Below, piece by piece: positions 23,561-47,199 of a DNA stretch of 64,000 nt. Position 1 is the stretch's first letter, and every line of letters begins with the position of its first letter. Made by a program: the position numbers and the translations under genes. The stretch lies in IMG/VR virus record IMGVR_UViG_3300030104_006994; one strand, written 5' to 3'. The DNA is from an uncultured virus (IMG/VR IMGVR_UViG_3300030104_006994) (Duplodnaviria > Heunggongvirae > Uroviricota > Caudoviricetes). The notes below the pieces were generated by a model. That model did no database searches. It was not told where the DNA came from and saw only the letters and a list, made by a program, of their open reading frames with translations.

Positions 23561-23767
23561 TTAAGATTGAGAACCTTGTACTAGCTCAGCTAGCACCCTA
23601 GCACAACCATCAACAGCGGCATGCTCTTCGTATGTCAGTCTTGCCTGACGAGCAGCAGCAGCAAGTGTATTCAACGCCTGCTCTGGTGTCGGAGCGGCTT
23701 GGCTAGCGGCCTCTTGAGGGGCTGCATCTTCCACAGGTGGGGTATCAATTACGTTATCTTCACTCAT
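23561..23767 (-). CDS. Small helical hypothetical protein
   Basis: 68 aa Ala/Gln-rich ORF on the coding strand, preceded by TAATATAACT. Confidence 0.65.
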   Translation of the reverse strand: MSEDNVIDTPPVEDAAPQEAASQAAPTPEQALNTLAAAARQARLTYEEHAAVDGCARVLAELVQGSQS

Positions 23768-23810: not shown

Positions 23811-24125
23811 TTAATTGACACTTGGAGGAGTTAAAACACCAGTATAAGGATCAGGTGAGTCCTTCAGAGCGTTTACTTGACCTGCAAGAACATTCTTCCA
23901 GTCTCCGTCTGCTGCTGCTCCATTGCAGATTGCAGAAAGGTCTAGATCTTCTGCAGCTTTTCTAGCGTCTCCAGTTAGAGCAACAGTCGTATCGATATAA
24001 GCAGAGGTTTCTCCATCTATAGCTGTCATTCCTACTATAACCTCACAAATTTTACCTTCGTCCGGATCCCCAGCTTTACAGACGCAATTTGCTTCTACTC
24101 TTGAAAATGAATATTCTATTGCCAT
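23811..24125 (-). CDS. Putative fibre-associated small protein / fibre assembly chaperone
   Basis: 104 aa. Paralog of 24143..24466 (MAIEYSFSR vs MAIAYEFSR; YTGVLTPPSVN vs WTGSLTAPNVS). AAGGA RBS. Confidence 0.55.
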   Translation of the reverse strand: MAIEYSFSRVEANCVCKAGDPDEGKICEVIVGMTAIDGETSAYIDTTVALTGDARKAAEDLDLSAICNGAAADGDWKNVLAGQVNALKDSPDPYTGVLTPPSVN

Positions 24126-24142: not shown

Positions 24143-24466
24143 TTAAGAAACGTTAGGAGCGGTTAAGCTGCCAGTCCACTCATGAGCCTCACCTTTTTGG
24201 TCAGAGATGCTCGCATCAATACCAGCTTTGACATTATTGTCCGATATGTAACCATTTAAAAGAGTATCCAAATCAAGAGACGCCGGGGCAACGCTAGCGT
24301 CGCCAGAGAGGGCTATTTCATGATTAGCGTAAGCTTCATAAGTCACTCCGTTAACTGTCTCCGAGCCTTTTAAAGTAAACTCGACCATTGTTGTCTTCTC
24401 ATTAGACCCATCTGAATCTGATGTACAAAGAGGGTTAATTCTGCTGAATTCGTATGCTATTGCCAT
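24143..24466 (-). CDS. Putative fibre-associated small protein / fibre assembly chaperone
   Basis: 107 aa paralog of the downstream gene. AAAGGA RBS and AGTGTAAT motif upstream. Confidence 0.55.
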   Translation of the reverse strand: MAIAYEFSRINPLCTSDSDGSNEKTTMVEFTLKGSETVNGVTYEAYANHEIALSGDASVAPASLDLDTLLNGYISDNNVKAGIDASISDQKGEAHEWTGSLTAPNVS

Positions 24467-24504: not shown

Positions 24505-25602
24505 TTAGGTTGCTGGGAGAACATCCGGTTGTAGGGCTGGTTGTGCCTGCTGAGGCATCGGAATACCTTGTGGTTGAGCTCCAAAGCCCTGCTGGGGCAT
24601 CCCTTGAGGTGGCATACCCTGAGGTGGGCAAGGCTGTCCCGGCCCGCATCCCTGCTGTTGTTGAGGTGGTGGAGCTAAATTCATTAAACTTTTAGGGAAT
24701 TTTGTATCTTTTTGTCTTTTTAAACTTTTAACAACTTTTTCTACATCAAAAATGTTATCATCTTTAAATGGGCACATATGAGGTTGACCAGATATATCTA
24801 AATCTCCTAAATAACTATCAATTAAATGAGTTTTCTTTAGTGTCACATTACTCACTATATTATCATGGAAATGTTCATAACCTAAAGCTTTAACATTATC
24901 CATTGGCCATAATACAGTAGACTTTTTATCTAAAGCCATAGCTGCATGCTGAGCAAAACTATCAATAAATAATCTTTTACTAGACCATTTTATTAATGCT
25001 ATTAACTCTCTAACATTTGGGCTTGAAATCCAAGGCATGTTTTCAAAACCCGGTTGGTGTTCTGTTCTTATTTGTACCGGATTGTATTGCTCAAAAAATG
25101 GTTCAATCATTTTAAGCACAGTTGGGAGAGGTGCGTCACGAACCCAAGACATAGGAGCTCTATCTGGACCCATGGCTCCGCCATTAGTTTGAATTAAGAA
25201 AATTGGTTTATCTGATGAGCCGAACTGCATTCTGGCTTGCTCAGATTCTGAATGAGTTAAATAAATCTCTGGTTTTTCACTATTATAATCAACTCCTAAA
25301 AGCTCGCACCAAGCTTGAATACAATGAACTTTTTTATTAATGTAGCCATGGTGGTGGTATGGCTCTTGTTTCATAATTAGAGTATCTTTATCTCTAATAT
25401 AATCTTCAAAGATGTAAGGAGTATTGCCTAATTGATAAAATCTTTCAACATTTGGGTTATTAAACCAAATAGCTGGCCATGAGCCAATAGTGATAATATC
25501 TCTTTCTGGGTACTTCTTTTTGATAGCCGCGGCAACCGCAGTTGCCATGATATTCTTACCGATTCCGCCTTCTACATGGAAGATAATATTCTTGTCATTC
25601 AC
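24505..25602 (-). CDS. GT9-like (heptosyltransferase-family, GT-B fold) glycosyltransferase
   Basis: N-terminal GGIGKNIMATAVAAAIKKKYP...NNPNV and C-terminal FIDSFAQHAAMALDKKSTVLW match GT9 signature regions. GTG start. Q/P-rich tail. Confidence 0.8.
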   Translation of the reverse strand: MNDKNIIFHVEGGIGKNIMATAVAAAIKKKYPERDIITIGSWPAIWFNNPNVERFYQLGNTPYIFEDYIRDKDTLIMKQEPYHHHGYINKKVHCIQAWCELLGVDYNSEKPEIYLTHSESEQARMQFGSSDKPIFLIQTNGGAMGPDRAPMSWVRDAPLPTVLKMIEPFFEQYNPVQIRTEHQPGFENMPWISSPNVRELIALIKWSSKRLFIDSFAQHAAMALDKKSTVLWPMDNVKALGYEHFHDNIVSNVTLKKTHLIDSYLGDLDISGQPHMCPFKDDNIFDVEKVVKSLKRQKDTKFPKSLMNLAPPPQQQQGCGPGQPCPPQGMPPQGMPQQGFGAQPQGIPMPQQAQPALQPDVLPAT

Positions 25603-25647
25603 AAATAGTTATATTATTATCTTGTGATTTAGACTAAAAATATTTAA

Positions 25648-25965
25648 CTAAACCTTTGCAGCGCCAGAAAACGGAGCATCCTCTCCCGTCGTAAATAAAT
25701 TATAAACCAAAGTGGGCAAATTCTCAGGAACAGAACCTGAATGAGCCACATCTTGGGAGATGTAATCTAAAGGCTCACCATTTGCCTCTGCGGTAGATTG
25801 GTCTTTATATACAAAAAAAGAGCCACGAACTGTTGTGTATTTTTCCGCTACTCCTGCCTGATCTGCTTCAGGTTCGTTCTTCCATCTATACTCAGACTCA
25901 TGTAATCTGAAATAAGCTTGATCAAATGTGATCCCAAATTTTTCGTGACTATGTAAAAATGCCAT
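25648..25965 (-). CDS. Putative fibre-associated small protein / chaperone
   Basis: 105 aa (FGITFDQAYFRL...VYNLF) directly downstream of a fibre gene. AGGA RBS. Confidence 0.55.
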   Translation of the reverse strand: MAFLHSHEKFGITFDQAYFRLHESEYRWKNEPEADQAGVAEKYTTVRGSFFVYKDQSTAEANGEPLDYISQDVAHSGSVPENLPTLVYNLFTTGEDAPFSGAAKV

Positions 25966-26013
25966 TTTTATTCCTATATTATTATAACTTAAAAACTCCT
26001 ATAAAACAAAACT

Positions 26014-29000
26014 TTATCCATAACATGGCTCCGTCCACTCCTCGTCCCTTTCTACCCCTTTCCAACTTTGGGACACAGCTGAGTCTTTTCTTGTGCCAAC
26101 TAACAACACGTTAAAGCATCCGTCTGAATTAGAACAAATTATTAAACAACACTGGTCAGCAGTAACCTCTCCATAAGCAGATCCAAAATGCCTATAAGGA
26201 GATACCCAAACCATATCGTTTTTATTTAGGTACCTATAATAATTTGGCAACGTTACTACGCTTACACAGTTGGAGGTCTCCACCTGCCACCTATAAATAT
26301 TATCCCCTTCGTTCGGCGACTCTACAAATGAATGGTAAAGCGTCCTATTATTAGAACAAGACGGATTAGGATGCTTTATTCTAAATGAGCCAGACGACTT
26401 ATTCAAAGTACTTACATGAGTGCAAGCAGCACAAATACAAGCATTACTTATGTTGCCATCTCCAAGAATCATGCATCCTGAAGTACTAGCGTTCAAGCAC
26501 TGGCCAGCTGCGCAACTATTATGAGGATTGCCTATTACTATATTGTAATTAAAAGAGCCACTAGTATGGGAGCCGCAAGCGAGAGCACAAGCCCCTATAG
26601 CTATATTGTAACATTCCTTGTGGTTCCATTGCCCTTGGGCGTACCCTGCGCAGTGACCTATTGCTATCCTACAGCAACCACATCCAGAACTATACAAACT
26701 TCTGTAGCCCATCGCCACATCACCTTTAAAAGTACCATCGTTAGCCCCACTAGAAAAACCAACCATCACTGCTTCGTTGCCTGCGTCAGCTTGGGCTCCG
26801 ACTGCAACTGAACAATCACTCATGTATCTATCAGTGCCAGTTCCTATTGCTACGGAATAATTACCGAGTATACCAAGGTAACCAGTACAGGCGCCAATGC
26901 CTACGTTGTAACATTTACAATTGTTAGCAGCCCCTCTCATAGCCATCCATCCTACAGAGGTATTTTGAAAACCCATACTACATTGTTGGGAGTCAGCGCC
27001 AACAGCGGTATTTGCAGATTGGGATCCATAATACCAACTACAGTTTTGATATTGTAAAGCGTTATTCCCTATAGCTGTGGAGTTTACTCCTTTCCCCGTG
27101 GGCATAGCGCAAGTACCTAATCTAACATTAGTAGTTCGTTCGTAACTACAACCGCTAGGATTACCCACAGCGCCTTGAAAACTGCATCCATCTATACCAG
27201 CACTAATACCACTTAAATTAGAACCATCGCCATAAAAACCACCACTAGCGGTAACTGTACCTGCGAACGTAGCCGCACCGCTACCATCGATTGTAAGTCT
27301 AGCGGTTTCATTAGTCATTAAAACCAAAGACCTTGAAGAAGAGTTATGGCCAAAATAAGCAGCAGTTCCATCCATCGCAAGGAACGTACTATACCCAGAG
27401 CCGGTTACTACAACTTGACCTGCCGCTCCTGAACTCGGTGAGACATTTCCTCCATGGTTGACATTTAAGCAGCCATCACAAAAATAAGAGTCGCCAGAAC
27501 AGAACTTGCCAGAATTCACATAACTAGTACCGCAAACTGCAGGAGAACTAACGCAAGTAGTGCCACAAACTACAGGCGCTTTCATTGAGCCAGTAGCGCA
27601 AACAATAGGAGAACAAAGGCAACTAGAGCCCCATACATAAGTAGTACTATGTAGATAATTAGAATAAAGTTGAGAGTGAAAGTAAAAAACACCAGAACCA
27701 TCTCCGCTATGGAAATTGAGGTTACCGCTGGAAGCACATACTTTCCAAGATCTTACGCCATTTTCATCAAACATCAAGCAACTAGTAGGGAACACAATAG
27801 TAGAGCGAACAAGAGCAGTTGCAACACACGTAGGAGCACAAAGAATAGGAGTACAAGCTAGCCCGCTCTTAAGGCACATAGACATTGCGCTACCAGCTTT
27901 AAGCAGCAGGTTGCCGGTCGATTGTATAGTAGCGGCATGACCATTATGCACCCAAAAAGAAAGGCACTGTGCGTTGTCTGTAGCGTCACCAGCAGCTTTC
28001 TTTATTCTTAGTATATTATGGTCCTTACCATAACTGTTAATCTGATTATGCCAACCACCTTCATTAGAGAAGACTTGCCCAACAGCTAGTCCGCAACAAC
28101 TAGCGCCAGCATTGCCACTATTTAATACTGTATGAACAGACGCAACACCACTTAAAACAGCTGACGTAGACTGAAGATAACCAGTAGCTATAACTGAATC
28201 TCCATGAATACAACCAGCAGCTAAAATGCAAGCCGCAGAACACATCATAGTTGTCGCACAAACGCTCGCTGATTTAAGGCAAGTAGTAGCGCAAACCCTA
28301 GGAGTATGAACACAGACCATAGCGCATTGGTATGCTGCCATACTGAATGAAGTAGATCTTAAGTCTCCACTGGTGTGATTGTAATAACTGTCAGCGCAAG
28401 TTACTCTCTTAACATACCAAGGAGTACCCATATTCATATTGCTACAATAAAATAATCCATTAGTTATACTTCTCACATGAACAGAGCCGTAATTCCAAGT
28501 ACTATCGCATTCTCCAAGTAGTATTACATATCGACCGTTACTAGTGCCTCCACAAGAATGATAAGCTAACTTAATAGGTTTGTCTGTGCAGCCGCCTGTT
28601 ATATGAGCACCGCAATTATACCATCGACAATTCCAGTTATGCCCACCTACAATAATAGTTGTAACATCATTACTGTTGTATTCATAAACATCAACAGCTA
28701 CGTGAACCATTCCGTGATGAGTAGCCCCGCCTTCACCATCTAAAGTTGGTAAGCCAATTTCTATACGACCAGTTTTGGAGCCGCTCTCTCCCCAAACCGC
28801 TTGCGGTAATCCTCCTACTTTACCTAAAGTAATACCATTGTTCATGTCCCCGCTTGAATCGGGAGCCATACAAAGAGTGCAATTAACGCAAAGGCAAACA
28901 CACGCAAAAGTATTACCTCGTAAGGTGATATTAGATCCAGTTCCTCCCCATATATCAAGTGTAGATGCGGTATCATCACAAATACCATTACGGTGCATTG

Positions 29001-31845
29001 TGGTATTTTCAGCATAGAAAGTTCCGCCGCTCACATAAATTCCACTTGGAACAATTATGTACGAACCGCCAGAACAAAGATAAGGATTGCTTTGGGTAAA
29101 CTTAAAGCAATTATCTGATCGAAAACAACTAGTAGCGCAAACAATAGGAGATCTAACACAAATCGAACCACAAAATTTACCAGTAAGAAATTCAGTGTTA
29201 TTAAGGTCTCCGTCATGTCTTTTAAGAGCCAAAGTAGGAGCAGAGTAAGAACCGCCGGTCTGAAGATATGGGCCGCAATTAGATGGATAACACCACCTAA
29301 CAATACTTCCGGAAGTCTCAAGAACAGGAGATTGTACGCAATTTGAGTTTATTAGCTCGCATGTTTGCTTAAAGCATGAACCATTAAACGCAAAGCATCT
29401 TGTACTATACGTAGCCCCTACCATGCTACAATTCGAATCTGTACTAATAACAAAATGCCCACCCGGACCACATATGATAGGAGTGTTTACTCCTGTTAAC
29501 TTGATTATAGGAGTGTTCACGCAAACATCAGCATGAGCTTTGTTGACGAATAGACAATTTGAATACACGCAAGTAGCGCCACAAACAATATTCCCTTTGA
29601 TAAGTGAACAACTACAAACAAGACCAAAATAATGATTAGAAAAGGAAGTTGAAGTACCACATCTCCAATACCAAGTTGCAGGTGTCGTAGATGCTCCACT
29701 TCCTGCACAACGATAATTTATATGAATACCGGCACTACCAGCACCTATCATCATTTCACTACCATGACCTACTAATTCTAATGTATCATAACTTGCATTC
29801 TTTTTAATGTGAGAGCGAGCTGGAGTACTTCCTGTAGCGACACAGCTAGTACCATAAAGCACTGAACCGCTTACGCAACTAGTACCACAAAGTTTTTGTA
29901 TCTTTAAAGTGTTTTCAATATTTGAAGACTTATTATGAGCTGAAGGATGACCATTTAATAATTCACCAAAACTAGGCTCCATACCATTCATCTCATAGAA
30001 ACCCGGACCCCACCATTGCACAACTTCGTCGCCGCCGTCAGAATAATAAAGATAAACTCTATGTCCATAGGTCAAACAAGTACTAGAGCCCATTCTATAC
30101 GTGGCGTTTGTATTTGTTTTTGTGCCGTCGCATAATCTATATATTCCACCATTATAACTTGCACTTGTGTCATCACAACCGACTATATATCCAATAGACA
30201 CATACCATTGTCCCTCTTCGAAGCTACTTATACCTGAACTAAAGAAATAAGGATTAGTATTAGCACTTCCGTCAATATTTCTTATATTATTTGTCCCAGT
30301 ACCTGTCCCATGATAAAATGTGCCGCTATTGTTGCCAGCAACTAATTTTTTAAAATATACAACAGACAGGTAAGCTCTTTTTGGATCAAGATTACATATA
30401 TTCTTACCCCAGCCTCCATCACCGTTGCTACCTGAATCATTTTGGTAGCTATGCCATATTAAAGATCTACGGCCCCAAGGATCAATACCAAAGCAAGTCC
30501 TATTGCAGTCTCCATTAGCAATGTAGCACAATCCGTCGGGCGAACATTGGCTATGGTTAGTAGTAGGACAAACTCTCCAACAACTAGAAGGAGCATAGTT
30601 CCATCTTACGTGCTTTGCTATTTCTCCTCTTGGGCTTGCGTTGTCTCCGGTCGATCCACTCAAACAAAGTTTTGCACCTTGTGATGTACCGCAACTAACT
30701 ATACTAGTATTAGCGCAAAGAACACCACACGCCTGAACAGTTCCTCCATTATGTATTATAAGTCTACCACTGTTGTTAGTGCCAAAGCATATAGCGCTAT
30801 TAGATCTATTCCATATGCATATATGAGATGCGGCTGAATCATTTTCAATAAATAACACTTTGTTGTTATCATGCCTTATCCATGCATAGTCAGAACCAGA
30901 AAAATCTCCATCAGAGCCGTCTAAGAGTAAAGTTGCGTGGTTATCAGTTGAGCCTATATATACAGCCTTTGCGCCAGACCCAGCAACCTTAAAGTCCTGA
31001 CAACTAGTAGTAGTACCACTTCCTATTACAATTCTAGCCGTACCACCACCGGCGCACGAAAGAACTAGATTTTCATCGTAGGACTTTACATGACCACCAT
31101 CTACAGCAATAGGCTTATGAATATAAAAGCAGTCTCTATCAGTGTTTATATGTGCCCAAGTAGAATTACCGGGACCTAAACTTATGAAGCCATGCTGAGT
31201 AGTATGCTTCATCATATCTCCATCAGAAGCTATTTTACTAGTAGCACAAGCACCATAGTTTGTGCATGAAGTAGCACAAAGAATAGGAGTCTTCAAACAA
31301 GTAGTGGCTTCTAAAGGATGGCAAGTATACATACATGAATTGCTAGACTGGGTTCCGATTATTTTTATAGCCCACTGCCCACCGCAATTCAATAAACCAA
31401 AGTTAGACGAACCATCAAAATAGACATACCCTCTAAGTGTACCACCGCATGACATAAATTTCATGCCGCCCGGCTGGTTATTATCACAACCGGTATATAA
31501 GCAAAGATAATTTTGACCCGTGGTTTGTCTTAATGAATGAGTTTTAGTGCAGGTAGTAGCAACAAGAGTAGGGCTTTGAAGGTAATTGCAAGCAAAAACA
31601 GCTGTTCCTAAAATTCTAAGAGCAGTATTATTGCCACCATTAGCATAAGTTGCTATTTTAAAATCTTGGCCAGCAGTTCTTTGAAGTGTTATATCAACCG
31701 AGCCATGACTAGTGCCAAGATAAAAAGCGGGTGTACCGTTACTTTGAACAAATCTACCACTACCGCAGACCATTAATTGTTCTGGAGCTGCTGTTGTCCC
31801 TGCTACCGTTAACTTTGTCGCACAAGTTGCTAATAGATTTGCCAT
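26014..31845 (-). CDS. Cysteine-rich fibre protein
   Basis: 1943 aa with about 126 Cys by hand count. Has an 11-aa C[AG]T[ST]C[VL]x[ST]P[IV][VL] repeat, YadA-head-like NxAxG repeats near the C-terminus, and a C-terminal SFRIKHP...LYHSFVESP domain shared with 39146..46018. Confidence 0.8.
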   Translation of the reverse strand: MANLLATCATKLTVAGTTAAPEQLMVCGSGRFVQSNGTPAFYLGTSHGSVDITLQRTAGQDFKIATYANGGNNTALRILGTAVFACNYLQSPTLVATTCTKTHSLRQTTGQNYLCLYTGCDNNQPGGMKFMSCGGTLRGYVYFDGSSNFGLLNCGGQWAIKIIGTQSSNSCMYTCHPLEATTCLKTPILCATSCTNYGACATSKIASDGDMMKHTTQHGFISLGPGNSTWAHINTDRDCFYIHKPIAVDGGHVKSYDENLVLSCAGGGTARIVIGSGTTTSCQDFKVAGSGAKAVYIGSTDNHATLLLDGSDGDFSGSDYAWIRHDNNKVLFIENDSAASHICIWNRSNSAICFGTNNSGRLIIHNGGTVQACGVLCANTSIVSCGTSQGAKLCLSGSTGDNASPRGEIAKHVRWNYAPSSCWRVCPTTNHSQCSPDGLCYIANGDCNRTCFGIDPWGRRSLIWHSYQNDSGSNGDGGWGKNICNLDPKRAYLSVVYFKKLVAGNNSGTFYHGTGTGTNNIRNIDGSANTNPYFFSSGISSFEEGQWYVSIGYIVGCDDTSASYNGGIYRLCDGTKTNTNATYRMGSSTCLTYGHRVYLYYSDGGDEVVQWWGPGFYEMNGMEPSFGELLNGHPSAHNKSSNIENTLKIQKLCGTSCVSGSVLYGTSCVATGSTPARSHIKKNASYDTLELVGHGSEMMIGAGSAGIHINYRCAGSGASTTPATWYWRCGTSTSFSNHYFGLVCSCSLIKGNIVCGATCVYSNCLFVNKAHADVCVNTPIIKLTGVNTPIICGPGGHFVISTDSNCSMVGATYSTRCFAFNGSCFKQTCELINSNCVQSPVLETSGSIVRWCYPSNCGPYLQTGGSYSAPTLALKRHDGDLNNTEFLTGKFCGSICVRSPIVCATSCFRSDNCFKFTQSNPYLCSGGSYIIVPSGIYVSGGTFYAENTTMHRNGICDDTASTLDIWGGTGSNITLRGNTFACVCLCVNCTLCMAPDSSGDMNNGITLGKVGGLPQAVWGESGSKTGRIEIGLPTLDGEGGATHHGMVHVAVDVYEYNSNDVTTIIVGGHNWNCRWYNCGAHITGGCTDKPIKLAYHSCGGTSNGRYVILLGECDSTWNYGSVHVRSITNGLFYCSNMNMGTPWYVKRVTCADSYYNHTSGDLRSTSFSMAAYQCAMVCVHTPRVCATTCLKSASVCATTMMCSAACILAAGCIHGDSVIATGYLQSTSAVLSGVASVHTVLNSGNAGASCCGLAVGQVFSNEGGWHNQINSYGKDHNILRIKKAAGDATDNAQCLSFWVHNGHAATIQSTGNLLLKAGSAMSMCLKSGLACTPILCAPTCVATALVRSTIVFPTSCLMFDENGVRSWKVCASSGNLNFHSGDGSGVFYFHSQLYSNYLHSTTYVWGSSCLCSPIVCATGSMKAPVVCGTTCVSSPAVCGTSYVNSGKFCSGDSYFCDGCLNVNHGGNVSPSSGAAGQVVVTGSGYSTFLAMDGTAAYFGHNSSSRSLVLMTNETARLTIDGSGAATFAGTVTASGGFYGDGSNLSGISAGIDGCSFQGAVGNPSGCSYERTTNVRLGTCAMPTGKGVNSTAIGNNALQYQNCSWYYGSQSANTAVGADSQQCSMGFQNTSVGWMAMRGAANNCKCYNVGIGACTGYLGILGNYSVAIGTGTDRYMSDCSVAVGAQADAGNEAVMVGFSSGANDGTFKGDVAMGYRSLYSSGCGCCRIAIGHCAGYAQGQWNHKECYNIAIGACALACGSHTSGSFNYNIVIGNPHNSCAAGQCLNASTSGCMILGDGNISNACICAACTHVSTLNKSSGSFRIKHPNPSCSNNRTLYHSFVESPNEGDNIYRWQVETSNCVSVVTLPNYYRYLNKNDMVWVSPYRHFGSAYGEVTADQCCLIICSNSDGCFNVLLVGTRKDSAVSQSWKGVERDEEWTEPCYG

Positions 31846-34800
31846 TTATTTAATTTTTTCCTTTATTTCTTTTAGTTCTTTGTACATCTGTTTAAATCCA
31901 TCAAAAAGAACTGTTACTGCTCTAGTATAATTTACACTTGTAGGATTCCCATCTTTATCATTTTCTACTAATTCTGGGAAGATTTCTGCTAATTCTTCAG
32001 CAATTAAACCAATTTCTTTTTTATCTTTACTTGTTTTTCTATTATACTTAACTGGACGTACTTTAGATATTTTTTCTAATGGAGAAGTGAAATCAAATAT
32101 ATTTTCTTTTATTGCTATACTTGATGACTCTGTAATACTTCCAACTCTCAAAGCGGCGTAAGAAGCTATAGTCACGTTGCCTGCTGTAGATCCTGTTTCA
32201 TTAGTAAACATGAAAGCAAATTCATCTGCGCTTTCGTCGTATATTAAACCGGCATTTGAATAGTCTCCTCTTTCTATTATTAAGCCTGCATCTAGAGTAG
32301 GAGTACCTGATTGAGCTTTAGCTAAAACTATTAAAGGATCTTCAACTAATAAATTAGTAGTATTAACAGTAGTAGCGTCTCCGTTTACAGTTAAGTCCCC
32401 GGTGATTATTACATCATTTGAAAAAGTTGCGTCTCCAGTACTTGCGGCTATTGTTAGTCGATTAGTACCTGCTGTTTCGTCTCTAATTATAAATCCTGTG
32501 CCATAGTCAGAAGTTAGATCATAAACTAAATTGCTACCCTCAGAGTCTTCAAGGCGAAGCGATGCGGGTCCTCCGTATTTAATATGAATTGGTTTTGCAG
32601 CGACATTGCTTGTAGCTGAGTTGCCGAACATTGCGGTCGTACCCCTAATTTGGCCATTTACTTCTAGTTTACTAGCTGGAGCAGTTGCTCCTATACCAAC
32701 ATTACCATCATTTTTAATGATAAACGGAGAGGCACTATGGACATACATATAGGTGTTAGACGGGCAAGCAGTATCATTGTAGTCTTGATTTACTACAAAG
32801 GGGTGATAATGTACTCCTACTTTCCCTCCATCCATCACCCAAAGATTAGTATTACCAGAAGAGTCAGTTGTTTTAAAAGTAAGTCCAGTAGAAGCACCAG
32901 CTCCTTTTATTTCTAATCTTGAGTCTGGATCAGTTACACCTATACCAACATTACCTCCAGATTTCAAAAATAGATTTGTTACCAATGCAGACGAACCGTC
33001 GTAAGTTTGTAATGATAAACTGTAGTTAGTAACTAGACCCTCTGTGATTCTTGCGTCACCATTTCCCCAATCTAAGCTACCTGAACTTGGTAAATCAAAT
33101 TCTGAACCATATACAGGGCCATTAACATAAAGTTGTGCGTTGTTGTTATTGGTTGTGGCAGTATCATTAATGAGTAATTTACCTGCACTATTAAGACGCA
33201 TCTTTTCGCTACCGCCAATTTCCCATGTCACGCGATTACTGCTATAAGTCAGCATACCGGTGTTCCCATCCAAATTGCCAATCATATAGGCATCAGTCAC
33301 CCCTATTTTGCCTTGGAAGACGGAAAGCATTTGTGACGGAGAGCTTGTCCCTATACCAACCTTACCATCTTCATCTATAACCATTCGGTCAGCACCAGTT
33401 CCATTTTTAGTTGTAGAGAAGATTAAATCAGCATCACCGTCTCCAGCAAATTGCGTACGAATAGTACCCTCAGCAGCTGCAGAATTGCTGTTTATTTTCA
33501 TTTGTATTGCAGCAAACCTGCCAGTATTAACCGAACCAGAATCACTATTCCTTAAAACAAGAATAGAATCAGCTTGATCGTTTAAGTTAAATGACGTGTC
33601 TGCACTAGGTTTTGCGATCTCTAAACCTTCGGTAGAAGGAGATTCTGTTCCTATTCCAACAACCCCAGAGCCCAATATAGTCATGTTAGCTGCGCCACCA
33701 TCTCTGAACTTTATAGGAAGCCCGGAGTCGACATTAAAGTTAAACGCGCCACCTCCCATATTAATATAACCTCTTTGGGTGTTTGCTGAACGTTCAATAG
33801 TTATACCAGAGGTAGAATTGCTATCTGCATCAGATTTGACGTGAAGCGCAGATCCCGGACTTGTAATCCCTATACCAACACTGCCTCCTTCTTTTATGAA
33901 AACTGGAACAGATGAAGTGCTTGCGTCATAAAAACTGAAGCCATCCGCATTTCCGTTATAGTGGCCTACATACCATTTAGGGCTTCCAGCATTTTCATAT
34001 ACAATCCCTGCGCTATAGCTATTTCCAGATGTAATAGAAATCCAGTTATTAGTATTGCCTGCGTCAAATCTTGCTAGAGTAGTTGAGGTTGCACTAACAT
34101 GAAGTTTGTAGCTGGGACTTGTTGTTCCTATTCCAACGTTACCGGAGGACTTAATACGCATATGTTCAGTATGATCATTTGTTTGAAAACTAATATAATC
34201 ATCATTCTTACATCGAATCGTCCAATATCCCCCACTATCTAAAAACCCTACGCTGTCACCGTTCGCATATATATAACCATCTGTATTACCAGCACTATCT
34301 TCAAACTGTATTCCTGTATCAGCACCTGAGCCTTTTATCTTAAGTGATGAATTATAACCTCCACCTGCGATTTCTAACTTTGAATCTGGTGTAGTTGTTC
34401 CTATGCCAACACAACCACTAGCGTTTATAGTCAAGTTGCTAGTTGACAAGCTGTCGCTTCGACCGACAGAAGCCATTGAATCTTCGGCAATCAGGTAGGT
34501 GCTTGTGTCGTTATCAGCTACTACTAATTTAGCTCTGCTTGAAGTTCCCTTAACCTGCATCCCAATAGCAGCGCCTCCAGCATATTGAACTTGCAGAGGA
34601 TAGCTGGGGCTTGTCGTCCCTATGCCAACGTGACCTGAGCCTTCTAATGTCATTCCAACAAGAAGTCCCAACGACCCCGAATCGGGCTGATACAGAAATT
34701 GTAAACCTCCTCCATAATTATCACTCGGCCCAGTCTTCCAACCACGAACAGCCCCAACTGGTGCAGTGTAATCTTGATTTCCAGAATGATACCCTTGATT

Positions 34801-37800
34801 AAACATAATCTGTGCGCCAGCGGTACTTGGAGCATGACCAGACTTGTAATCTAATTTTAAAGTTGAAAATCCATTAACAGTTGAAGAAGCTGTAGAACTC
34901 AGAAGATGAACAAGTGATGCAGCCGATTCCGATGAATCCGTAATTGTTCCAATTTGTAAAGCAGCAGTTGGAGCAGTTGTTCCTATACCAACACTACCAC
35001 TAGACAAAATCCGCATAGCGTCTACGAAAGTATCTCCAGAGTTGACAGTGAACTGCATAGACCCAGTAGCTGCCCCACCGGGAGCGGTAGCCAAGACTCT
35101 AATTCTTGCTGCTGTATTACTTGCTGAGCCGCCAGAGCTACTACCACCTATAAAGTTGATATCATGGTTACCGCTAGACCAAGTGTTTTTTATGTTTATA
35201 TTAGAGCCATTATCTTCAAATATTGCGTCCCCATTAACATGCAGCTTAGCCCCCGGACTTGTGGTGCCTATGCCAACATTACCGTCAGTCTTAACCGCTA
35301 TTCTTGTTCCCCCAGCGTCCTGATCTCTTAGGTTAAGGAGTCCGTTTGAATCGACATATAGCCTATACTCTCTAGCATCAGTTCTATGCAGCCATAAACC
35401 TACGTCACCCCCTGAAGTTTCTAAATTGAGGTTACCTGCAACTTCCAATTTAGCAGCTGGAGTTGCTGTTCCTATCCCCACGCTACCACTATCAAGAGCA
35501 ATAATAGAAGAGTTCTGTAAAGTCCCAGTCCCATTAAAACGCGGAATATAGTTATCAGTACCAGAACCACTTATTGAATTCCCTACTCCAGAAACAGTTG
35601 TCCATGTCAGAGTGCCACTGCCATCAGTTTTTAAAACTTGGTTTGCGCTACCGTCTGCGGTCGGGAAAGTAAATGCTCCTATAGTAACTGCTCCATCAAT
35701 ATGCAGCTTAGCGGATGGAGACGTTGTTCCTATCCCTACATTACCATTAGAATTAACTACTATCGCATTATAAGCAGCATCGTGACCGTAGAAAGCGTAA
35801 TCATGCGCATGAACATAACCTAGTTGTGCCCCAGCTGATGTAGCACTTCCAATATGAACTGTAGGACTAGCGCTAGGCCTAATAATATACGCAACTACAG
35901 AATCGCTACTCCTGAGATCTAACTTTGCGGCAGGAGAAGTTGTTCCTATACCGACATTACCATTAGTGTTAAACGCCATTCTTGTCGCAGAATCTGTAGC
36001 GTCGTAAAACTCTAAAGTTCCATTGACAGTTTGTCCGTCTACTATCTTCCAGTGTTGAGTAGTGGAACCAGTTTTCTTGATCTCGTAACCTACAGTAGAG
36101 TTTGCAGCTACTTGAGTTAATACGGTTGTAGTACCGGCAGTTTTACTAACATGAAGGTGAGCGGCGGGAGAAACTGTACCTATACCAACATTACCGTTAT
36201 AAGTAATTCTCATTCCCTCGGTAATGCCTCCGCTTCCTGACCCGTATCCAAGCGCTAGGTCTGCTGCTCCCGATGTTGCGGTAGTACGAATCGCTGTTAT
36301 CGCAGCTCTCCCAGCCCCAGAATCTCCAGCCATTAAAAGTAGCTGCGCTCCCGGAGTACCATAAGTTGATGTCGCCGCATTATTTCTAATAGTCAATCCG
36401 GAATGCGCTGGCTCCCCAGATGGCGCACTCATATTTGCACTATAAGTATAAAATACCTCAAGCTTTGTGCCCGGAGTTGCTGTGCCTATACCAATGTTAG
36501 CAGTGCCAATCATACCCATGGTAACCATACCATCGTTATAAGTACGCAGTAATTCGTCTCCGCCTTGTCGGAACACCCTCAAGGCTGATGTGGCATTATT
36601 AGCCCCTGCTCCTAAAATGTTTACCAAAGCCGTGGTGTCACCGGTGCCAAATCCACTAGCGCCACTTGGTACATATACGCCACCCACCACATGGAGAGCT
36701 CGAGTTGGGCTTGTTGTTCCTATACCAACACTACCTCCATTTACTACAGTAAGATAATCACCACGACCAGTAACATTTGAACCGGGATCAGTAAATTTAC
36801 TTATAGCAATTCCTGCGTCGGTAACTATAACGCCAAAATTATTATTAGCCGTACTAGACCAATCTCCTGCGCCACGAGACAATTTAATACCAGAATAGTA
36901 TCCTGCTGTAGCTTGTACTCCTATCCAAGTATTATTGTCAGTACCATCTCCAACATGTAATTGATTGACAGGAGCAGTTGTTCCTATGCCAACTCGGTTG
37001 TTTATTCCATCTAGGTTTAGTACTGTTGTACCACCTGTCGGAGCAGTCGCTCTTGTTCCTAAATAATTAAAACGGAACATTGCGTTACCGTTATGCCCGA
37101 TCGACCATGTTCTGTCATTAGTTGCTGCACCACCGAAAAACTTTATCCAAGAATCCTTCGTGTTCGAGGCGTGTAAATCGCTTCCTAATAGAAGTAATGA
37201 TTGATTTACATTGGAGTAAGTGTCATGTATCCGTATTGCTGCTTGAGTACCCCTAACCTCCAGCATTTGGGTGGGCGCAGTAGTCCCGATGCCAACTTTG
37301 CCATCGACTTTAATACGAACATGTTCTGTGTAAGTATTATCTTCCACTGACCCAAAGGTTAGATGACCTGCACCAGTTACGCCATCGTTCGTAGCTTGTA
37401 TACCGGCACCATCCCAATTGGAGCCGGTGTTATTGTTCATTCTAAAAGCTATACCAGCTCTTGAATCAGCAGCGTGGGTTGTGTTTCTAACATTTAAAAT
37501 AAAATTATCTGAGCCAGCTGCTACTGTATTTTCAACTTGGAGTTTAAATTCTGGACTTGTTGTTCCTATCCCAACATTACCACTACCATCTATTCTTACT
37601 GCCTCCGAATCTGAAGTCTTGAATTTTATATAAGAAGCATTGTCTCCAATGAAAATTGGCTTGTTTACATTTTGTCCTGCTCCAGTTGCGAAATAATAAC
37701 CGCTTGTATCCTGCCCTGCTAATATTTCACCATCCCCGCCGAATAAATAACCAGCAGATATATTAATTTTTACTCCATTACTAACAGTCTCAAACGTTTT

Positions 37801-39144
37801 AGTGCCATTATAAAACAAATTAACAGCACCATCGTTTACGCATTGGAGCATGGTTTCCCCAGAATGCTTTATATAAAAGTTTTGAGCTGTATCTAATATT
37901 AAATCTCCATTGGCAATTACGCTATTTATATAGTTATTAGAACCGTCATGGTAAATTTGAAGATCATCACCTGTTCCCAAAAGAATTTTTATATTATCAG
38001 GAATTTTAAAATCACCAGTGTCATACCATTCGGCACATTTAGTAGTTTCGTTGTAAACTTCTAATCCACCATATTGATTGACTCCTAATTGAAAATATTC
38101 ACCACCTGAGTTTTCAAATATTTTTAAAGCGTAACCACTGGAGTTTGTATTTAGTGTTGTTAATTCAGAGACTGTTATGTTGCCATTAAACTGTACTGCT
38201 CCGGCATCGCCGGTCAGAATATTCATCGCGCTCGTTGCAGTAGTAGCAACATTACTACCAATACGAAGTTCTGCTGTTCCACCGTTATAAGTCTGCTGAA
38301 TTGCTGTGCTAGCGGAAACGCTACTTGTATTGTTAAAAGTTACGCTGCCGTGAATTGGTCCGACAGTTACGCCTGTCGAATTTGTCCTCATCCTTTCCGA
38401 AAAAGACGATCCAACCGCAAACACCAAACCATCCGAACCATTATTGACATTTATGGAGCCACGGACTTGAGAAGAATCTTTTAACTGAACATAAGCGCCT
38501 CCCGATTTACTAAGTATAAGGTTGCCGCCGCTATCAATTCGTAACCTCTCTGTTGGAGTATCCGAATTAACTCCATGACCAATAATAAAATTACCAGAGC
38601 CATCATTGAAAATTCTACTGTCTGCACCACCAGAAGGAACAGAAAATACTAAATTAGGCGCAGCTGAAGTTATTCTTAATAAGCTGTTTTCAACTGTTAT
38701 ACCCCCGGTGAAAAAACTTGCTCCTGCTTTAAAGCCCGCATAACTTGCAGGAGTCAAAGTCGTAGCCGAACCATCTCCGGTAGTTAATATAGCTGCAAAT
38801 TGGTCAGCAGACTCGTCCCATATAAAAGCCGCATTATTTGAATCTCCCCTTAGCCCAACAAACCCTATATCGACCGTAGGAGAACCACTTGTCTGTCCTT
38901 TCGCTAACTGAAGAATAGGATCTTCTATAAGAATATTAGAAGTATTAACAGTTGTAGTTGTGCCGCCAACCGTAAGGTTACCGTCTAGAACTATGTCATT
39001 AGCATAGATGTCAACAAAATTAGACTCTCCAGAATCTTTGAATTCAAATCTGCCACTGCTAGTTTTTAAGACAGTCGTAGTGTCGCCAGAATCAGTAAAA
39101 GCGATTTTGGTTGAAGCCGGTGTTATGAGTACGTCTTGTGCCAT
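31846..39144 (-). CDS. Long fibre protein with GNVGIGT repeats and C-terminal peptidase S74-type intramolecular chaperone
   Basis: 2432 aa with about 19 xxVGIGxxxP repeats. The C-terminus SSIAIKENI...RPVKY...IGLIAEEL...PELV...VNY plus a coiled coil is an S74 chaperone pattern. Confidence 0.85.
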   Translation of the reverse strand: MAQDVLITPASTKIAFTDSGDTTTVLKTSSGRFEFKDSGESNFVDIYANDIVLDGNLTVGGTTTTVNTSNILIEDPILQLAKGQTSGSPTVDIGFVGLRGDSNNAAFIWDESADQFAAILTTGDGSATTLTPASYAGFKAGASFFTGGITVENSLLRITSAAPNLVFSVPSGGADSRIFNDGSGNFIIGHGVNSDTPTERLRIDSGGNLILSKSGGAYVQLKDSSQVRGSINVNNGSDGLVFAVGSSFSERMRTNSTGVTVGPIHGSVTFNNTSSVSASTAIQQTYNGGTAELRIGSNVATTATSAMNILTGDAGAVQFNGNITVSELTTLNTNSSGYALKIFENSGGEYFQLGVNQYGGLEVYNETTKCAEWYDTGDFKIPDNIKILLGTGDDLQIYHDGSNNYINSVIANGDLILDTAQNFYIKHSGETMLQCVNDGAVNLFYNGTKTFETVSNGVKINISAGYLFGGDGEILAGQDTSGYYFATGAGQNVNKPIFIGDNASYIKFKTSDSEAVRIDGSGNVGIGTTSPEFKLQVENTVAAGSDNFILNVRNTTHAADSRAGIAFRMNNNTGSNWDGAGIQATNDGVTGAGHLTFGSVEDNTYTEHVRIKVDGKVGIGTTAPTQMLEVRGTQAAIRIHDTYSNVNQSLLLLGSDLHASNTKDSWIKFFGGAATNDRTWSIGHNGNAMFRFNYLGTRATAPTGGTTVLNLDGINNRVGIGTTAPVNQLHVGDGTDNNTWIGVQATAGYYSGIKLSRGAGDWSSTANNNFGVIVTDAGIAISKFTDPGSNVTGRGDYLTVVNGGSVGIGTTSPTRALHVVGGVYVPSGASGFGTGDTTALVNILGAGANNATSALRVFRQGGDELLRTYNDGMVTMGMIGTANIGIGTATPGTKLEVFYTYSANMSAPSGEPAHSGLTIRNNAATSTYGTPGAQLLLMAGDSGAGRAAITAIRTTATSGAADLALGYGSGSGGITEGMRITYNGNVGIGTVSPAAHLHVSKTAGTTTVLTQVAANSTVGYEIKKTGSTTQHWKIVDGQTVNGTLEFYDATDSATRMAFNTNGNVGIGTTSPAAKLDLRSSDSVVAYIIRPSASPTVHIGSATSAGAQLGYVHAHDYAFYGHDAAYNAIVVNSNGNVGIGTTSPSAKLHIDGAVTIGAFTFPTADGSANQVLKTDGSGTLTWTTVSGVGNSISGSGTDNYIPRFNGTGTLQNSSIIALDSGSVGIGTATPAAKLEVAGNLNLETSGGDVGLWLHRTDAREYRLYVDSNGLLNLRDQDAGGTRIAVKTDGNVGIGTTSPGAKLHVNGDAIFEDNGSNINIKNTWSSGNHDINFIGGSSSGGSASNTAARIRVLATAPGGAATGSMQFTVNSGDTFVDAMRILSSGSVGIGTTAPTAALQIGTITDSSESAASLVHLLSSTASSTVNGFSTLKLDYKSGHAPSTAGAQIMFNQGYHSGNQDYTAPVGAVRGWKTGPSDNYGGGLQFLYQPDSGSLGLLVGMTLEGSGHVGIGTTSPSYPLQVQYAGGAAIGMQVKGTSSRAKLVVADNDTSTYLIAEDSMASVGRSDSLSTSNLTINASGCVGIGTTTPDSKLEIAGGGYNSSLKIKGSGADTGIQFEDSAGNTDGYIYANGDSVGFLDSGGYWTIRCKNDDYISFQTNDHTEHMRIKSSGNVGIGTTSPSYKLHVSATSTTLARFDAGNTNNWISITSGNSYSAGIVYENAGSPKWYVGHYNGNADGFSFYDASTSSVPVFIKEGGSVGIGITSPGSALHVKSDADSNSTSGITIERSANTQRGYINMGGGAFNFNVDSGLPIKFRDGGAANMTILGSGVVGIGTESPSTEGLEIAKPSADTSFNLNDQADSILVLRNSDSGSVNTGRFAAIQMKINSNSAAAEGTIRTQFAGDGDADLIFSTTKNGTGADRMVIDEDGKVGIGTSSPSQMLSVFQGKIGVTDAYMIGNLDGNTGMLTYSSNRVTWEIGGSEKMRLNSAGKLLINDTATTNNNNAQLYVNGPVYGSEFDLPSSGSLDWGNGDARITEGLVTNYSLSLQTYDGSSALVTNLFLKSGGNVGIGVTDPDSRLEIKGAGASTGLTFKTTDSSGNTNLWVMDGGKVGVHYHPFVVNQDYNDTACPSNTYMYVHSASPFIIKNDGNVGIGATAPASKLEVNGQIRGTTAMFGNSATSNVAAKPIHIKYGGPASLRLEDSEGSNLVYDLTSDYGTGFIIRDETAGTNRLTIAASTGDATFSNDVIITGDLTVNGDATTVNTTNLLVEDPLIVLAKAQSGTPTLDAGLIIERGDYSNAGLIYDESADEFAFMFTNETGSTAGNVTIASYAALRVGSITESSSIAIKENIFDFTSPLEKISKVRPVKYNRKTSKDKKEIGLIAEELAEIFPELVENDKDGNPTSVNYTRAVTVLFDGFKQMYKELKEIKEKIK

Positions 39145-39145
39145 T

Positions 39146-42100
39146 TTATTCTTCTATTTCTACTTGTAGTTTATCCACGTCTATTCTCTCTGCATTTATT
39201 AAATAATAATAATTTAATTGACTTATGTTCTTTCTATTTTCCTCTGACTGTATATACACTACATTATTTTCTATTCTTTCTACATATAATTGTTGAGGTT
39301 TGCCTATTGCTGTTAGCTGTACTGTTATACTGTCTTCATCTATTAACTTGGTCCAATATTCTGGTAATTCTATTGAGTTATTATTAGATTTGCCTCTAAT
39401 GTAAACTCCATTTTCTGGGCCTTCCAAAGAACCATATCTTAGCTTCTTACCGGGTTTAGTCGGATGATCGATCGTAAATGATTTTGTAGTAGCTGTTAAA
39501 AGGCCCGTAATTGTTACTCCAGTTGTAGTTGTTTCTAATTTCTTTGCGTTATTGTGGTAAAGAGTAACTGGTCCGTCTGGTTCAAATGTGGCTAGCTTTT
39601 CGCCGCCTACTTTGTAAAATCCACTATCTCCTGTACCAGCTACCTCAATTAACAGAGAACCCGTTCCAGCATCTTTTATATAACTGTTTGAACCATCATG
39701 ATAAATTTGTAAATCATCACCATTACCAAATACAGCCTTTGTGTTGTCTCTGTATCTGGTTAAGCTCATACTTGCATCCCACTCCATGTACTGACTTGAA
39801 GTAGTGCTATGGAACATAGCGTCAGCCCCAGAACCGTTTGATCCAATAGTTAGTATACTTGATAGATTTAACGTACCCGTTACGCTTACGCCAGTAGAAG
39901 TTGTTTCTAATTTCTTGCTGTTGTCGTAATATAGCTCGACAGCACCATCATCGTTAGCAACTATTGACTCTTCGCCGCTTTTGCCTCTAATACGAACGTC
40001 GCCATTGGCATCCCCAATTATTAGAATTCCTGTACCATTATTTGTAATCCATGAGTTAGAGCCATCATGGAAAATTTCCAAATCATTACCAGTACCTAAA
40101 AGAAGTTTGTCATTGTCTTGAAGGTCAAGTGAACCAGTGAAAACACCGCCAGTTGCAGTTACTGTTCCGCTAACATTAATGCCAGCTGAAGTAGTGGCTA
40201 ATTTGACTGAGTTGTCATAGTAAAGGGAAACTGCTCCGTTCTCTATGAAGGATAGCCCTGTTTCGTTATAAGCTGCGTTCTTTATATATAAGGCGTCTGA
40301 CGCTATGACTAAAGCGCCTGCTCCGTTATCTATGATATATGAGCTACTTCCATCGTGGGTGATTAGCAAATCGTCACTTGTGCCTAGTTTAATCCACGCA
40401 TTATCTGGCATGTCCAAATGAGAGCTAAGATCAAGTTGGCCATTGATTGTGGCTCCACCCGCAGTAATGCTATTGCTGAAAAATGTGGAAGCGCCGCTAC
40501 TTGCAATTTGGAAATAAGTTGAGCTACCTTGAACAACCTCGAAAGCGTTACCAGTAGTTCTATCTTGTTCTCCCCCTATACGAACGTCAGTCCCGGTCGA
40601 ACCATTGGAAGCGGCACGATTGCCTAATATTTTTAATGTTTGATTACCTCCGGAATCTTCACAAGATATTAAATTTTCATACTGACTAGTGCGGGAAAGT
40701 CTTATCCCATTTGTAATCTCAACGGTTCCGCCAAATGTGGATTTCCCATCACCAGTAATATTTAAAACTGACCCGCCAGAATTTTCAACATAAAGTAAAG
40801 ACTTAGTAGCATTCCCAGTATCCATATAGGCATGAATTGCCTTATTCGTACCGTATGCAGTTCCTATTACTTTAAGAGCGGCCGCGCCTGATTGGTCTGA
40901 TGCTGCTTGGTTAACTTGAAGCCTGCCTGCTGGAGAAGTCGTCCCTATACCGATATTTCCGTCGGACTTAATGCGCATTCTCTCCAGAATATTTGGAACA
41001 CTCCCAGAAGCATCTGAAGTAAAAAACCTCATATCGGAAGTATGAGTTGCTCCCGGCTCCGTTACTTGAATTCTAGCTGTTGGATTAGCGTGAGTTGTTG
41101 TTCTTGTGAAATCTATTACTCTAACGTTGCCACTTGATGACCCTATTTCTATTCCGTCGTTATCAGCAGAAGCAATAACCTCTAAAGCCTTGCCCGGAGT
41201 CGCTGTTCCTATACCAACATTACCGTCACTTTTTATTGTTAAAGCTTCTGTAGTGTTATTAGTAAAGAATGATATATTAGAGTTTTCGTAATTTTGAATT
41301 CTTAAAGCAGAGGAATTGTAACCTATCCTTGCTCCGTCTGTAGCCGTAGCTCCTATTGCCCCATCTGTAATTCTAATATAACCAAAGCCATCTCCACTTC
41401 CATGAACATGTAGAGCGTTTTGTGGGCTAGTTGTACCTATACCAACATTTCCACTCTTAATATAAAGCCTAGAAGTTGATCCTTCCTTTATATTAAAATT
41501 ATCCCCACCACCATCATAGTTAGCCCTAATGCTCCAATCCACACTATCGTCGTTACCGAGCCATTCTATGTCTCCGTTGGCCACGGCATTCCCAGTTCGT
41601 TTTAGCTGTATTTTTGGGAGAAAAGCTGTTGACCTAATTGTACCACTTGCCTCAAGTGTTGTAGCTGGTGCATTTGTTCCTATACCAACATTACCGTCAT
41701 CATTTATAACTAGTCTTTGATTCGAGTCTAAATTAGAAGCCTCTGCGATTACAAAAGAAGTGGCTGAACGATCAAGGCCTATGGTAAATTCTCTTGAGCC
41801 TTGTGTTTCGAAGGAAATCACAGAATCATCTCCCGCTGCTGTACCTGTATTATGTATATCAATACCAAGTTGAGAACCGCCACCGCCTGCTTTAACTGCT
41901 AGTTTTTTAGCTGGAGCAGTTGTACCTACCCCAACATTCTTACTTGTATCTATATATAAAGCCGCTCCTGCATTTTGCTCTATTTGAACAGGGTGATTTG
42001 TTCTTGAGCCGAAAATTGCTTTAGTGTTGTTGGACTGTATGTATGCCCCGACTGTATTTGTAGTATCGGTAACCCTAAGTTCTGGACTACCTACTCCTTG

Positions 42101-47196: not shown

Positions 47197-47199
47197 TTT

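Follow-up and report, generated by a model that had tools for sequence, protein, structure and literature searches.

The protein heptosyltransferase TibC modifies Ser residues in a beta-helical adhesin, with Asp110 as its proposed base (excerpts of PMC4358343). It belongs, as TibC/TibA and together with AAH/AIDA-I (PDB 4RAP, 4RB4), to the bacterial autotransporter heptosyltransferase (BAHT) systems, in which the partner of a GT9-type GT-B enzyme is an autotransporter; features of this group are an iron-bound dodecamer and O-heptosylation of Ser. Sugar-Cys bonds are formed in bacteria by the glycocin S-glycosyltransferases SunS, GccA, and ThgS, a precedent for cysteine as acceptor, although S-linked glycosylation is rare, and the excerpts of these sources give as natural cases, besides glycocin peptides, a small number of mammalian proteins (PMC9877059, PMC12457901). 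In phages, glycosylation of virions by phage-encoded glycosyltransferases has been described for mycobacteriophages (as cited in passages of PMC12619734 and PMC10877033).

The locus described here lies in a 64,000-nt stretch of DNA (the window), and its likeness to the BAHT systems is at the level of how it may work: the gene of a GT9-fold enzyme lies near a repetitive, beta-rich, adhesin-like partner, a UspA1-like fibre two genes upstream. The partner is a phage fibre rather than an autotransporter, however, and where TibC has Asp110 in a TLGD motif and Ser acceptors, this enzyme has the Lys of GIGK and a Cys-studded partner. Mycobacteriophage glycosylation reportedly (Freeman et al. 2023) concerns the C-termini of capsid and tail-tube proteins, in contrast to the fibre with dispersed Cys and GT9-fold enzyme found here. 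Whereas glycocin enzymes, in the parts of the sources cited above, act at one or two sites on small peptides, approximately 126 sites would be possible on this 1943-aa structural protein. The C-terminal part of the fibre shares its repeat scaffold with the left-handed beta-roll trimer heads of the YadA/UspA1 type (PDB 3PR7; excerpts of PMC9543794), yet its repeats are longer (15-17 residues), carry Cys at variable positions, and are found without an autotransporter anchor. We consider it reasonably likely that this is a TibC-like system glycosylating fibre cysteines. In the open-licence literature searched, no publication came up that describes this enzyme together with fibres rich in Cys.

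A cysteine-studded fibre and its gene neighbourhood

The window encodes phage structural proteins from its minus strand, with the following features around the fibre:

39146..46018, minus strand: Cys-poor fibre with collagen repeats and an SFxIxHP domain (3 Cys in 2290 aa)
31846..39144, minus strand: Cys-poor fibre with an S74 chaperone domain (PF13884) and matches to tail fibre PHROGs (5 Cys in 2432 aa)
26014..31845, minus strand: Cys-studded tail fibre, the proposed acceptor (126 Cys in 1943 aa)
25648..25965, minus strand: 105-aa ORF between fibre and transferase (0 Cys, no family match)
24505..25602, minus strand: 365-aa GT9-fold (GT-B) transferase, from a model fold match to GT9 enzymes
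24143..24466, minus strand: 107-aa small protein, DUF7936-like as a weak lead (Atlas 0.89 to a cluster in which 56% of the members carry PF25590)
23811..24125, minus strand: 104-aa small protein with 4 Cys, its start like that of the 107-aa ORF
23561..23767, minus strand: 68-aa acidic ORF, the last gene before a terminator-like hairpin
23519-23495, minus strand: terminator-like hairpin (11 pairs, then a T run; a consensus match only)

Counted from the translation, Cys make up 6.5% of the fibre, which agrees exactly with the approximate hand count of the preliminary description, as do the 5 and 3 Cys of the two adjacent, larger fibres; these two are internal controls outside the proposed system. 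The Cys are spread throughout the protein, as had been stated, with 3-10 in every 100-aa block, and the binomial chance of 126 Cys at a base rate of 1% is about 2e-59. Recoding as the source of the high Cys content was ruled out, because both Cys codons are used (68 TGT and 58 TGC) and other genes have ordinary Cys levels. Ser and Thr together account for 19% of the fibre vs 20-22% of the Cys-poor neighbours, and His for 2.8% vs 1.5%. The earlier claim that the Cys do not cluster into CxxC pairs also held (5 vs 8.3 expected), but other spacings are enriched, namely CxxxC (17 vs 8.2 expected, matched by 0 of 300 shuffles) and Cx10C (16 vs 8.2, matched by 1 of 300). This enrichment fits an 11-residue repeat of the fibre (e.g., SPIVCATSCFR). 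A local Cys cluster, CGCC, occupies residues 1722-1725.

The fibre is a mosaic of 11-residue repeats, beta-rich modules, NxAxG beta-roll repeats (approximately residues 1585-1780), and a C-terminal SFxIxHP domain. It has no direct Pfam or PHROG match itself, and is identified as a tail fibre by its UspA1-like repeats (a profile of its C-terminal part matched the UspA1 head 3pr7, E 8.8e-15) and by flanking PHROG tail fibres in a tail gene block. A monomer model of the last 374 residues (mean pLDDT 59) is confident for the last domain only, which resembles fibre tip domains with a middling fold-search score (Z 6.8); the best score for the C-terminal model was Z 8.0, likewise middling, with an rmsd of 23.8. 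The SFxIxHP domain of fibre 39146..46018 does lack Cys, as the preliminary description noted, but belongs to another subtype (YGSLEGP vs HSFVESP), so that the two domains are only distant counterparts.

Cys placement was counted in repeats whose middle was left unconstrained and in which no position was fixed (268 17-mers and 450 15-mers). All 206 Cys of the 17-mers lie at positions 2, 3, 5, 6, 12, 13, 16, and 17, and none at positions 1, 4, 7-11, 14, and 15, which include small Ala/Ser sites that would fit a buried Cys. Variable positions likewise hold 278 of the 281 Cys in the 15-mers, and in residues 1585-1780 of the window fibre 13 of 14 Cys occupy repeat positions 3, 5, 6, 13, and 17. According to excerpts of PMC9543794, the core of solved beta-roll trimers is formed by two beta-branched residues flanking an Ala; these would correspond to repeat positions 8 and 10, where none of the 268 repeats has a Cys. 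In the last domain, Cys1830, 1860, 1899, 1904, and 1910 align mostly with K, G, T, S, and E columns of nine Cys-poor homologues, and Cys1900 with a mixed column. Judged by this sequence pattern, the variable Cys positions probably face solvent.

Pairs were counted in 344 17-residue repeats, in which positions 7-11 were set by the search pattern. One Cys was present in 149 and none in 137, and pairs within and between repeats matched chance, except for position 3-3 (5 vs 0.8). In alignments with close relatives, 200 of 273 sites keep their Cys (73%), a level similar to that of Gly and Pro; where Cys is replaced, K, T, S, A, or Y takes its place, most often Lys. The suggestion that the Cys are exposed and unpaired gains from their variable positions, the Cys-free core, and the chance-level pairing in 17-mers, and loses from the excess of 3-3 pairs.

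The transferase gene is the second downstream of the fibre, where the preliminary description had placed it; it shares the fibre's strand and follows the 105-aa ORF, the two intergenic gaps being 48 and 45 bases. ORFs of about 105-120 aa occupy the place of the 105-aa ORF in many related loci, and from its position this is probably a fibre-associated small protein. The 107-aa and 104-aa ORFs are paralogue-like; close relatives keep the latter with 4-5 Cys, and it is a possible second Cys-bearing partner. The hairpin closes a run of fibre, small ORF, transferase, and three small ORFs. It is the clearest of nine terminator-like sites in the scan, vs 5.9 in shuffles, and this marks a putative operon limit; a promoter scan was at chance (28 vs 26.5).

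A GT9-fold enzyme with Lys at the catalytic position

The transferase had no Pfam or NCBIfam match, heptosyltransferase models included, and sequence searches against solved structures returned nothing useful; it matches PHROG 8954, to which no function is assigned in PHROG. A model built from 110 sequences (pLDDT 96) has a GT-B fold most like that of WaaC and WaaF (Foldseek, VIA-align), with Z 22.5 to 3tov, 21.0 to WaaF, 19.7 to TibC, and 19.4 to WaaC, and rmsd 3.3-3.5 over 247-274 residues. The next unrelated GT-B proteins match from Z 11.7 downward. The label "GT9-like" given earlier is thus borne out by the model fold, but not shown by Pfam (PF01075) or NCBIfam profiles. GT9-fold subunits of the plant NDH complex also score Z 18.5-18.9, so that the fold alone is no proof of catalysis. 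The enzyme has many relatives, with 355 returned by a first search and 700 cluster representatives by a second; three relatives narrowly pass the PF01075 cut-off, and one Atlas cluster carries PF01075 on 45% of its members.

With the GT9 lipopolysaccharide (LPS) heptosyltransferases WaaC, WaaF, WaaQ, and WaaU, for which ADP-heptose is the donor and LPS the acceptor, the enzyme shares the fold (Z 19-21), the glycine loop between beta1 and alpha1, and the C-terminal DSxxxHxAAA, retained here as DSxxxHAA. It differs in its gene position among fibre genes, in the lack of a PF01075 match, and in the loop after strand 1, where the xGD motif is replaced by GGxGK16 (GGIGK). In a sequence alignment, Lys16 aligns with the xGD Asp of E. 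coli WaaF, WaaC, WaaU, and WaaQ. In two alignments, 87 of 87 and 102 of 110 rows have this Lys, and one branch has Arg instead (GGAGR); K16, R155, D214, S215, and H219 are cleft residues at least 90% conserved. The Asp-to-Lys change fits the S-glycosylation reading and goes beyond the evidence of the preliminary description.

TibC stood outside this four-enzyme alignment, and its Asp110 was located in TLGD separately. The model match begins at TibC residue 92, the N-terminal part of TibC being missing from the enzyme, and the two sequences resemble each other only weakly (hhalign probability 25%, 67 columns). NCBIfam presumably holds a TibC/Aah model, and no NCBIfam family matched the enzyme at E up to 1. 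The enzyme would work like TibC/AAH, yet it stands outside the BAHT family because it has no catalytic Asp and no profile match. Glycocin S-glycosyltransferases have a GT-A fold and go with a small precursor peptide and a peptidase-transporter, whereas the model here is GT-B and no peptidase-transporter is encoded among the 31 scanned ORFs; the enzyme is not a glycocin enzyme.

Thirteen long relatives were scanned for domain fusions, and GT25 was found in three and FkbM in three, as is expected for a glycan-building enzyme. After approximately residue 305 (window 24505-24687), the enzyme has a Gln/Pro-rich low-complexity tail with CGPGQPC, which is missing from most relatives (290-305 aa) and kept in the closest ones. 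With the full-length query, this tail dominated the first locus scan (14 of 15 loci spurious or partial), and later queries were therefore restricted to residues 1-305.

Co-occurrence of the enzyme and Cys-rich fibres

The enzyme and a Cys-studded fibre travel together in many phages and some bacteria. Among the best 80 of at least 465 confirmed viral loci selected by the enzyme, 65 hold a fibre-like ORF with at least eight Cys in a 200-aa window, and the other 15 are loci of 4-16 kb. All close relatives caught have Cys-rich fibres (4.4%-8.8% Cys), the fibre being mosaic (best segments 25%-73% identical).

The co-occurrence anticipated by the preliminary description was recovered in two controls blind to the enzyme. 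The fibre-first control comprised 150 phage loci chosen by the C-terminal SFxIxHP domain alone (all 70 loci of the window fibre's own subtype and the best 80 of 602 of its neighbour's subtype); 147 whole records were searched for the enzyme, two loci (L103, L104) being positive within the locus and one (L158) left out. Only full-length Lys/Arg-type matches were counted, and Asp-type or split genes (L182, L187, L228) were set aside. The enzyme was present with 26 of 30 Cys-rich vs 1 of 120 Cys-poor domain-bearing fibres (p 8e-24), and the single Cys-poor positive locus holds other Cys-rich fibres. Counted per locus, it was present in 27 of 36 vs 0 of 114, all 27 positives holding some Cys-rich fibre-like ORF; after dereplication at 70%, in 11 of 12 Cys-rich vs 1 of 43 Cys-poor (p 1e-9). 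Most of these records are fragments, and the subset seeded by the window fibre leans to its kin; in near-complete records, the enzyme was present in 2 of 2 whose domain fibre is Cys-rich and in 0 of 9 whose domain fibre is Cys-poor.

The repeat-first control used a DNA pattern for the 17-residue NTAIG repeat with four Cys-prone positions left free (at least 134 stretches); 70 records were searched for the enzyme, and 14 with fewer than five repeats were set aside. Cys per repeat was near two-state, with none in 74 of 104 loci. The enzyme was present in 3 of 11 Cys-substituted vs 0 of 45 Cys-poor records (p 0.006), the eight Cys-substituted records without it being 7%-37% complete. A tree test gave two independent pairs on well-supported branches and five in all, too few for significance, so that independence rests on the recurrence of the link in unrelated fibre modules and lineages. 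Overall, we regard some coupling between enzyme and fibre as very likely.

Two cultured phages carry the pair. In Pelagibacter phage HTVC111P, the enzyme gp53 (GGVGK) directly follows fibre gp52 with 12 Cys, and in Prochlorococcus phage P-SSM2 an Arg-type enzyme, gp307 (GGAGR), lies beside gp304 and gp306 with 36 Cys each. The latter two proteins (L401:27261-30127) are 355 aa each with 10% Cys, gp304 being without a Pfam match, and directly precede the Arg-type enzyme, a carbamoyltransferase gene, and heptose-synthesis genes. A carbamoyltransferase-like ORF also adjoins the Arg-type enzyme in L247 and L252 and the Lys-type enzyme in L016.

Cys-rich proteins were also found on records without the enzyme. 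Three loci (L108, L112, L116; 11-34 kb, 7%-22% complete) encode Cys-rich fibres, a sulfotransferase, and a GT2-looking gene, so assigned by motif reading with no Pfam match, and no Lys-type enzyme; this clade counts against the S-glycosylation reading. A broader profile detected no divergent enzyme in Cys-rich, enzyme-negative fragments (best E 0.058). The sulfotransferase of this clade (e.g., L108:8111-12004) differs, and a sister locus, L142, has sulfotransferase, GT2-looking gene, and Lys-type enzyme. Another record (62% complete, no enzyme) encodes a 321-aa protein whose Cys (8%) recur at regular intervals (L223:17749-18714), probably a separate, disulfide-type class.

Enzyme loci also came from cellular genome assemblies, but only 12 of 22 had a Cys-rich ORF in the flank. 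In L456, L452, and L455, two enzyme paralogues lie among housekeeping genes beside a beta-roll protein with the same kind of Cys (26-39 in L452 and L456, 13 in L455), and L456 and L455 also have a sulfotransferase; L457 has the enzyme and fibres with about 1% Cys. A bacterial chromosomal arrangement of a sulfotransferase and two enzyme paralogues by a large surface-type protein was seen in L456:6242-12738, L452, L455, L448, L444, and L445, one of the two paralogues being without the GGxGK motif.

In the enzyme-first loci (n=81), the gene context included a sulfotransferase cluster in 49, APS kinase in 29, and a nucleotidyltransferase-like gene in 24, which hints at a coat sulfated from a donor that the phage itself makes. 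None of these three was found among the 31 scanned ORFs of the window. In many of L017-L096 (e.g., L020:2705-4572, L027:12665-13511), the genes after the enzyme are for sulfotransferase, APS kinase, a nucleotidyltransferase-like protein, and DUF2061; APS kinase is usually classed as a host-metabolism gene.

Proposed cysteine glycosylation and alternative explanations

The recurrence of the pairing in many phages and some bacteria suggests that the enzyme probably attaches sugars to sulfur atoms of the fibre. We infer an active enzyme with the fibre as substrate and sulfur as the site of the bond. Such a protein glycosyltransferase of the GT9/TibC fold would move a sugar from an NDP-sugar to surface Cys thiols of the fibre, in the host cytoplasm and before or during assembly. 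On chemical reasoning, a thiol should need no carboxylate base, and Lys16, in place of the base needed for a hydroxyl, could stabilise the thiolate. Cys would then serve as an address, one fibre being coated and its Ser/Thr-rich neighbours left bare; since these neighbours have as much Ser and Thr but almost no Cys, only fibre 26014-31845 would be coated. Shielding, adhesion, and host-glycan mimicry, put forward in the preliminary description, are conceivable purposes of such a coat. In other phages, the first sugar might be extended, methylated, or sulfated by the products of fused or adjacent GT25, FkbM, and sulfotransferase genes. While the enzyme-fibre system is strongly supported, the S-linkage is a proposal. 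The S-glycosylation reading of the preliminary description is backed by co-occurrence, Cys placement, and the lack of pair enrichment in 17-mers, and is weakened by the CxxxC and Cx10C spacings, the enzyme-less Cys-rich clade, the eight Cys-substituted repeat-first records without the enzyme, and the cellular loci, among them L457, in which the enzyme lacks a Cys-rich partner. A broader reading, in which a widespread Lys-type GT9-fold enzyme densely S-glycosylates surface Cys of beta-roll fibres to give S-glycosylated virions, often with sulfation via phage PAPS, and the cassette also coats surface proteins of certain bacteria, is one that we favour by a small margin.

The enzyme may instead act on the fibre while placing its sugar on Ser, Thr, or Asn, or a non-sugar group on Cys, the role of the Cys being in recognition, in cross-linking, or as sites of a different modification, for instance direct sulfation. 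We regard this as unlikely, though it has a basis: TibC, the closest characterised protein-modifying relative, uses Ser (excerpts of PMC4358343), and nearly a fifth of the fibre is Ser and Thr. The Cys-poor neighbours are equally rich in these residues, however, the hydroxyl-activating Asp is replaced in the enzyme, and where Asp-type or split GT9-like genes do occur, on three control records, they accompany Cys-poor domain fibres. Also in favour, 44 of 80 enzyme loci have a sulfotransferase motif, and of the 25 control loci with this motif 21 hold a Cys-rich fibre, three of these without the enzyme; on the other side, 32 of the 36 enzyme loci lacking the motif still have Cys-rich fibres, and the gene is missing from both the scanned window ORFs and the close relative G001 (67% complete). 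The CxxxC and Cx10C enrichment and the 73% Cys conservation fit cross-links as well, and together with the 3-3 stacking and the enzyme-less Cys-repeat protein of L223 they favour an armour of disulfides formed after lysis, with the transferase as a passenger by linkage whose target lies elsewhere, for example in host LPS or a different virion protein. Cyanophage sugar genes have been interpreted as host-surface modifiers (excerpts of PMC12801897), which would suit a passenger. Yet most 17-residue repeats have a single Cys or none, pairs are at chance, and Cys exchanges with K, T, S, A, and Y; a passenger would leave without explanation the 1/120 vs 26/30 association across unrelated fibre modules, the recurrence of the cassette in bacterial chromosomes next to Cys-substituted beta-roll proteins, and the Asp-to-Lys change. 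We consider this combination improbable, less likely than sugar on other residues or a non-sugar group on Cys.

Metal-bound fibre needles are known from T4, and the Cys could in principle coordinate metal (Zn, Fe, or Fe-S) along the three-fold axis or at the surface, for stiffening or metal scavenging. The CxxxC enrichment, local clusters such as CGCC, and the raised His content are in line with this, whereas the absence of Cys from the core-facing positions 8 and 10 and the lack of excess CxxC are not, and the link to the enzyme would be left unexplained; metal binding is highly improbable. Slightly less probable again is that the GT9-fold protein has no catalytic function and serves Cys-rich fibres as a chaperone or structural partner. 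The catalytic Asp is missing, the NDH-complex subunits match as well as real enzymes, and divergent motif-less paralogues adjoin the enzyme in some bacteria, but the conserved cleft residues, the GT25 and FkbM fusions, and the sugar-synthesis genes beside the relative in P-SSM2 point to an enzyme.

If S-glycosylation of the fibre holds true, a GT-B enzyme that sugars tens to a hundred Cys of a structural protein would represent a new scale of this modification, and Lys for Asp a new catalytic solution, with potential as a tool for stable S-glycoproteins. It would also account for the 3%-9% Cys in some phage fibres despite the reducing cytoplasm where they fold, and genes of phages for sugars, sulfotransferases, and APS kinases could be re-read as virion-coating genes. 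Since the cultured phages HTVC111P and P-SSM2 carry the system, the proposal is directly testable.

With respect to redox functions, thioredoxin-family genes were present in three of five enzyme-bearing records checked, far from the fibre locus, which counts against the S-glycosylation reading; a search for Erv/Alr oxidases had no match even in the control genomes and so carries no weight. The close relative G001 encodes Gmd-, Pse-, and Neu-like sugar genes; its contig C1 (L255-L257) has a nonulosonic-acid/GDP-mannose cluster, two other GT9-like ORFs, and a 5689-aa ORF, and a prepilin-type gene there gives a weak host hint only. The window itself has an unusually large set of fibres, with three successive Laminin_G_3 lectin-domain proteins (46045-50501) and, upstream, several fibres that bear collagen repeats.
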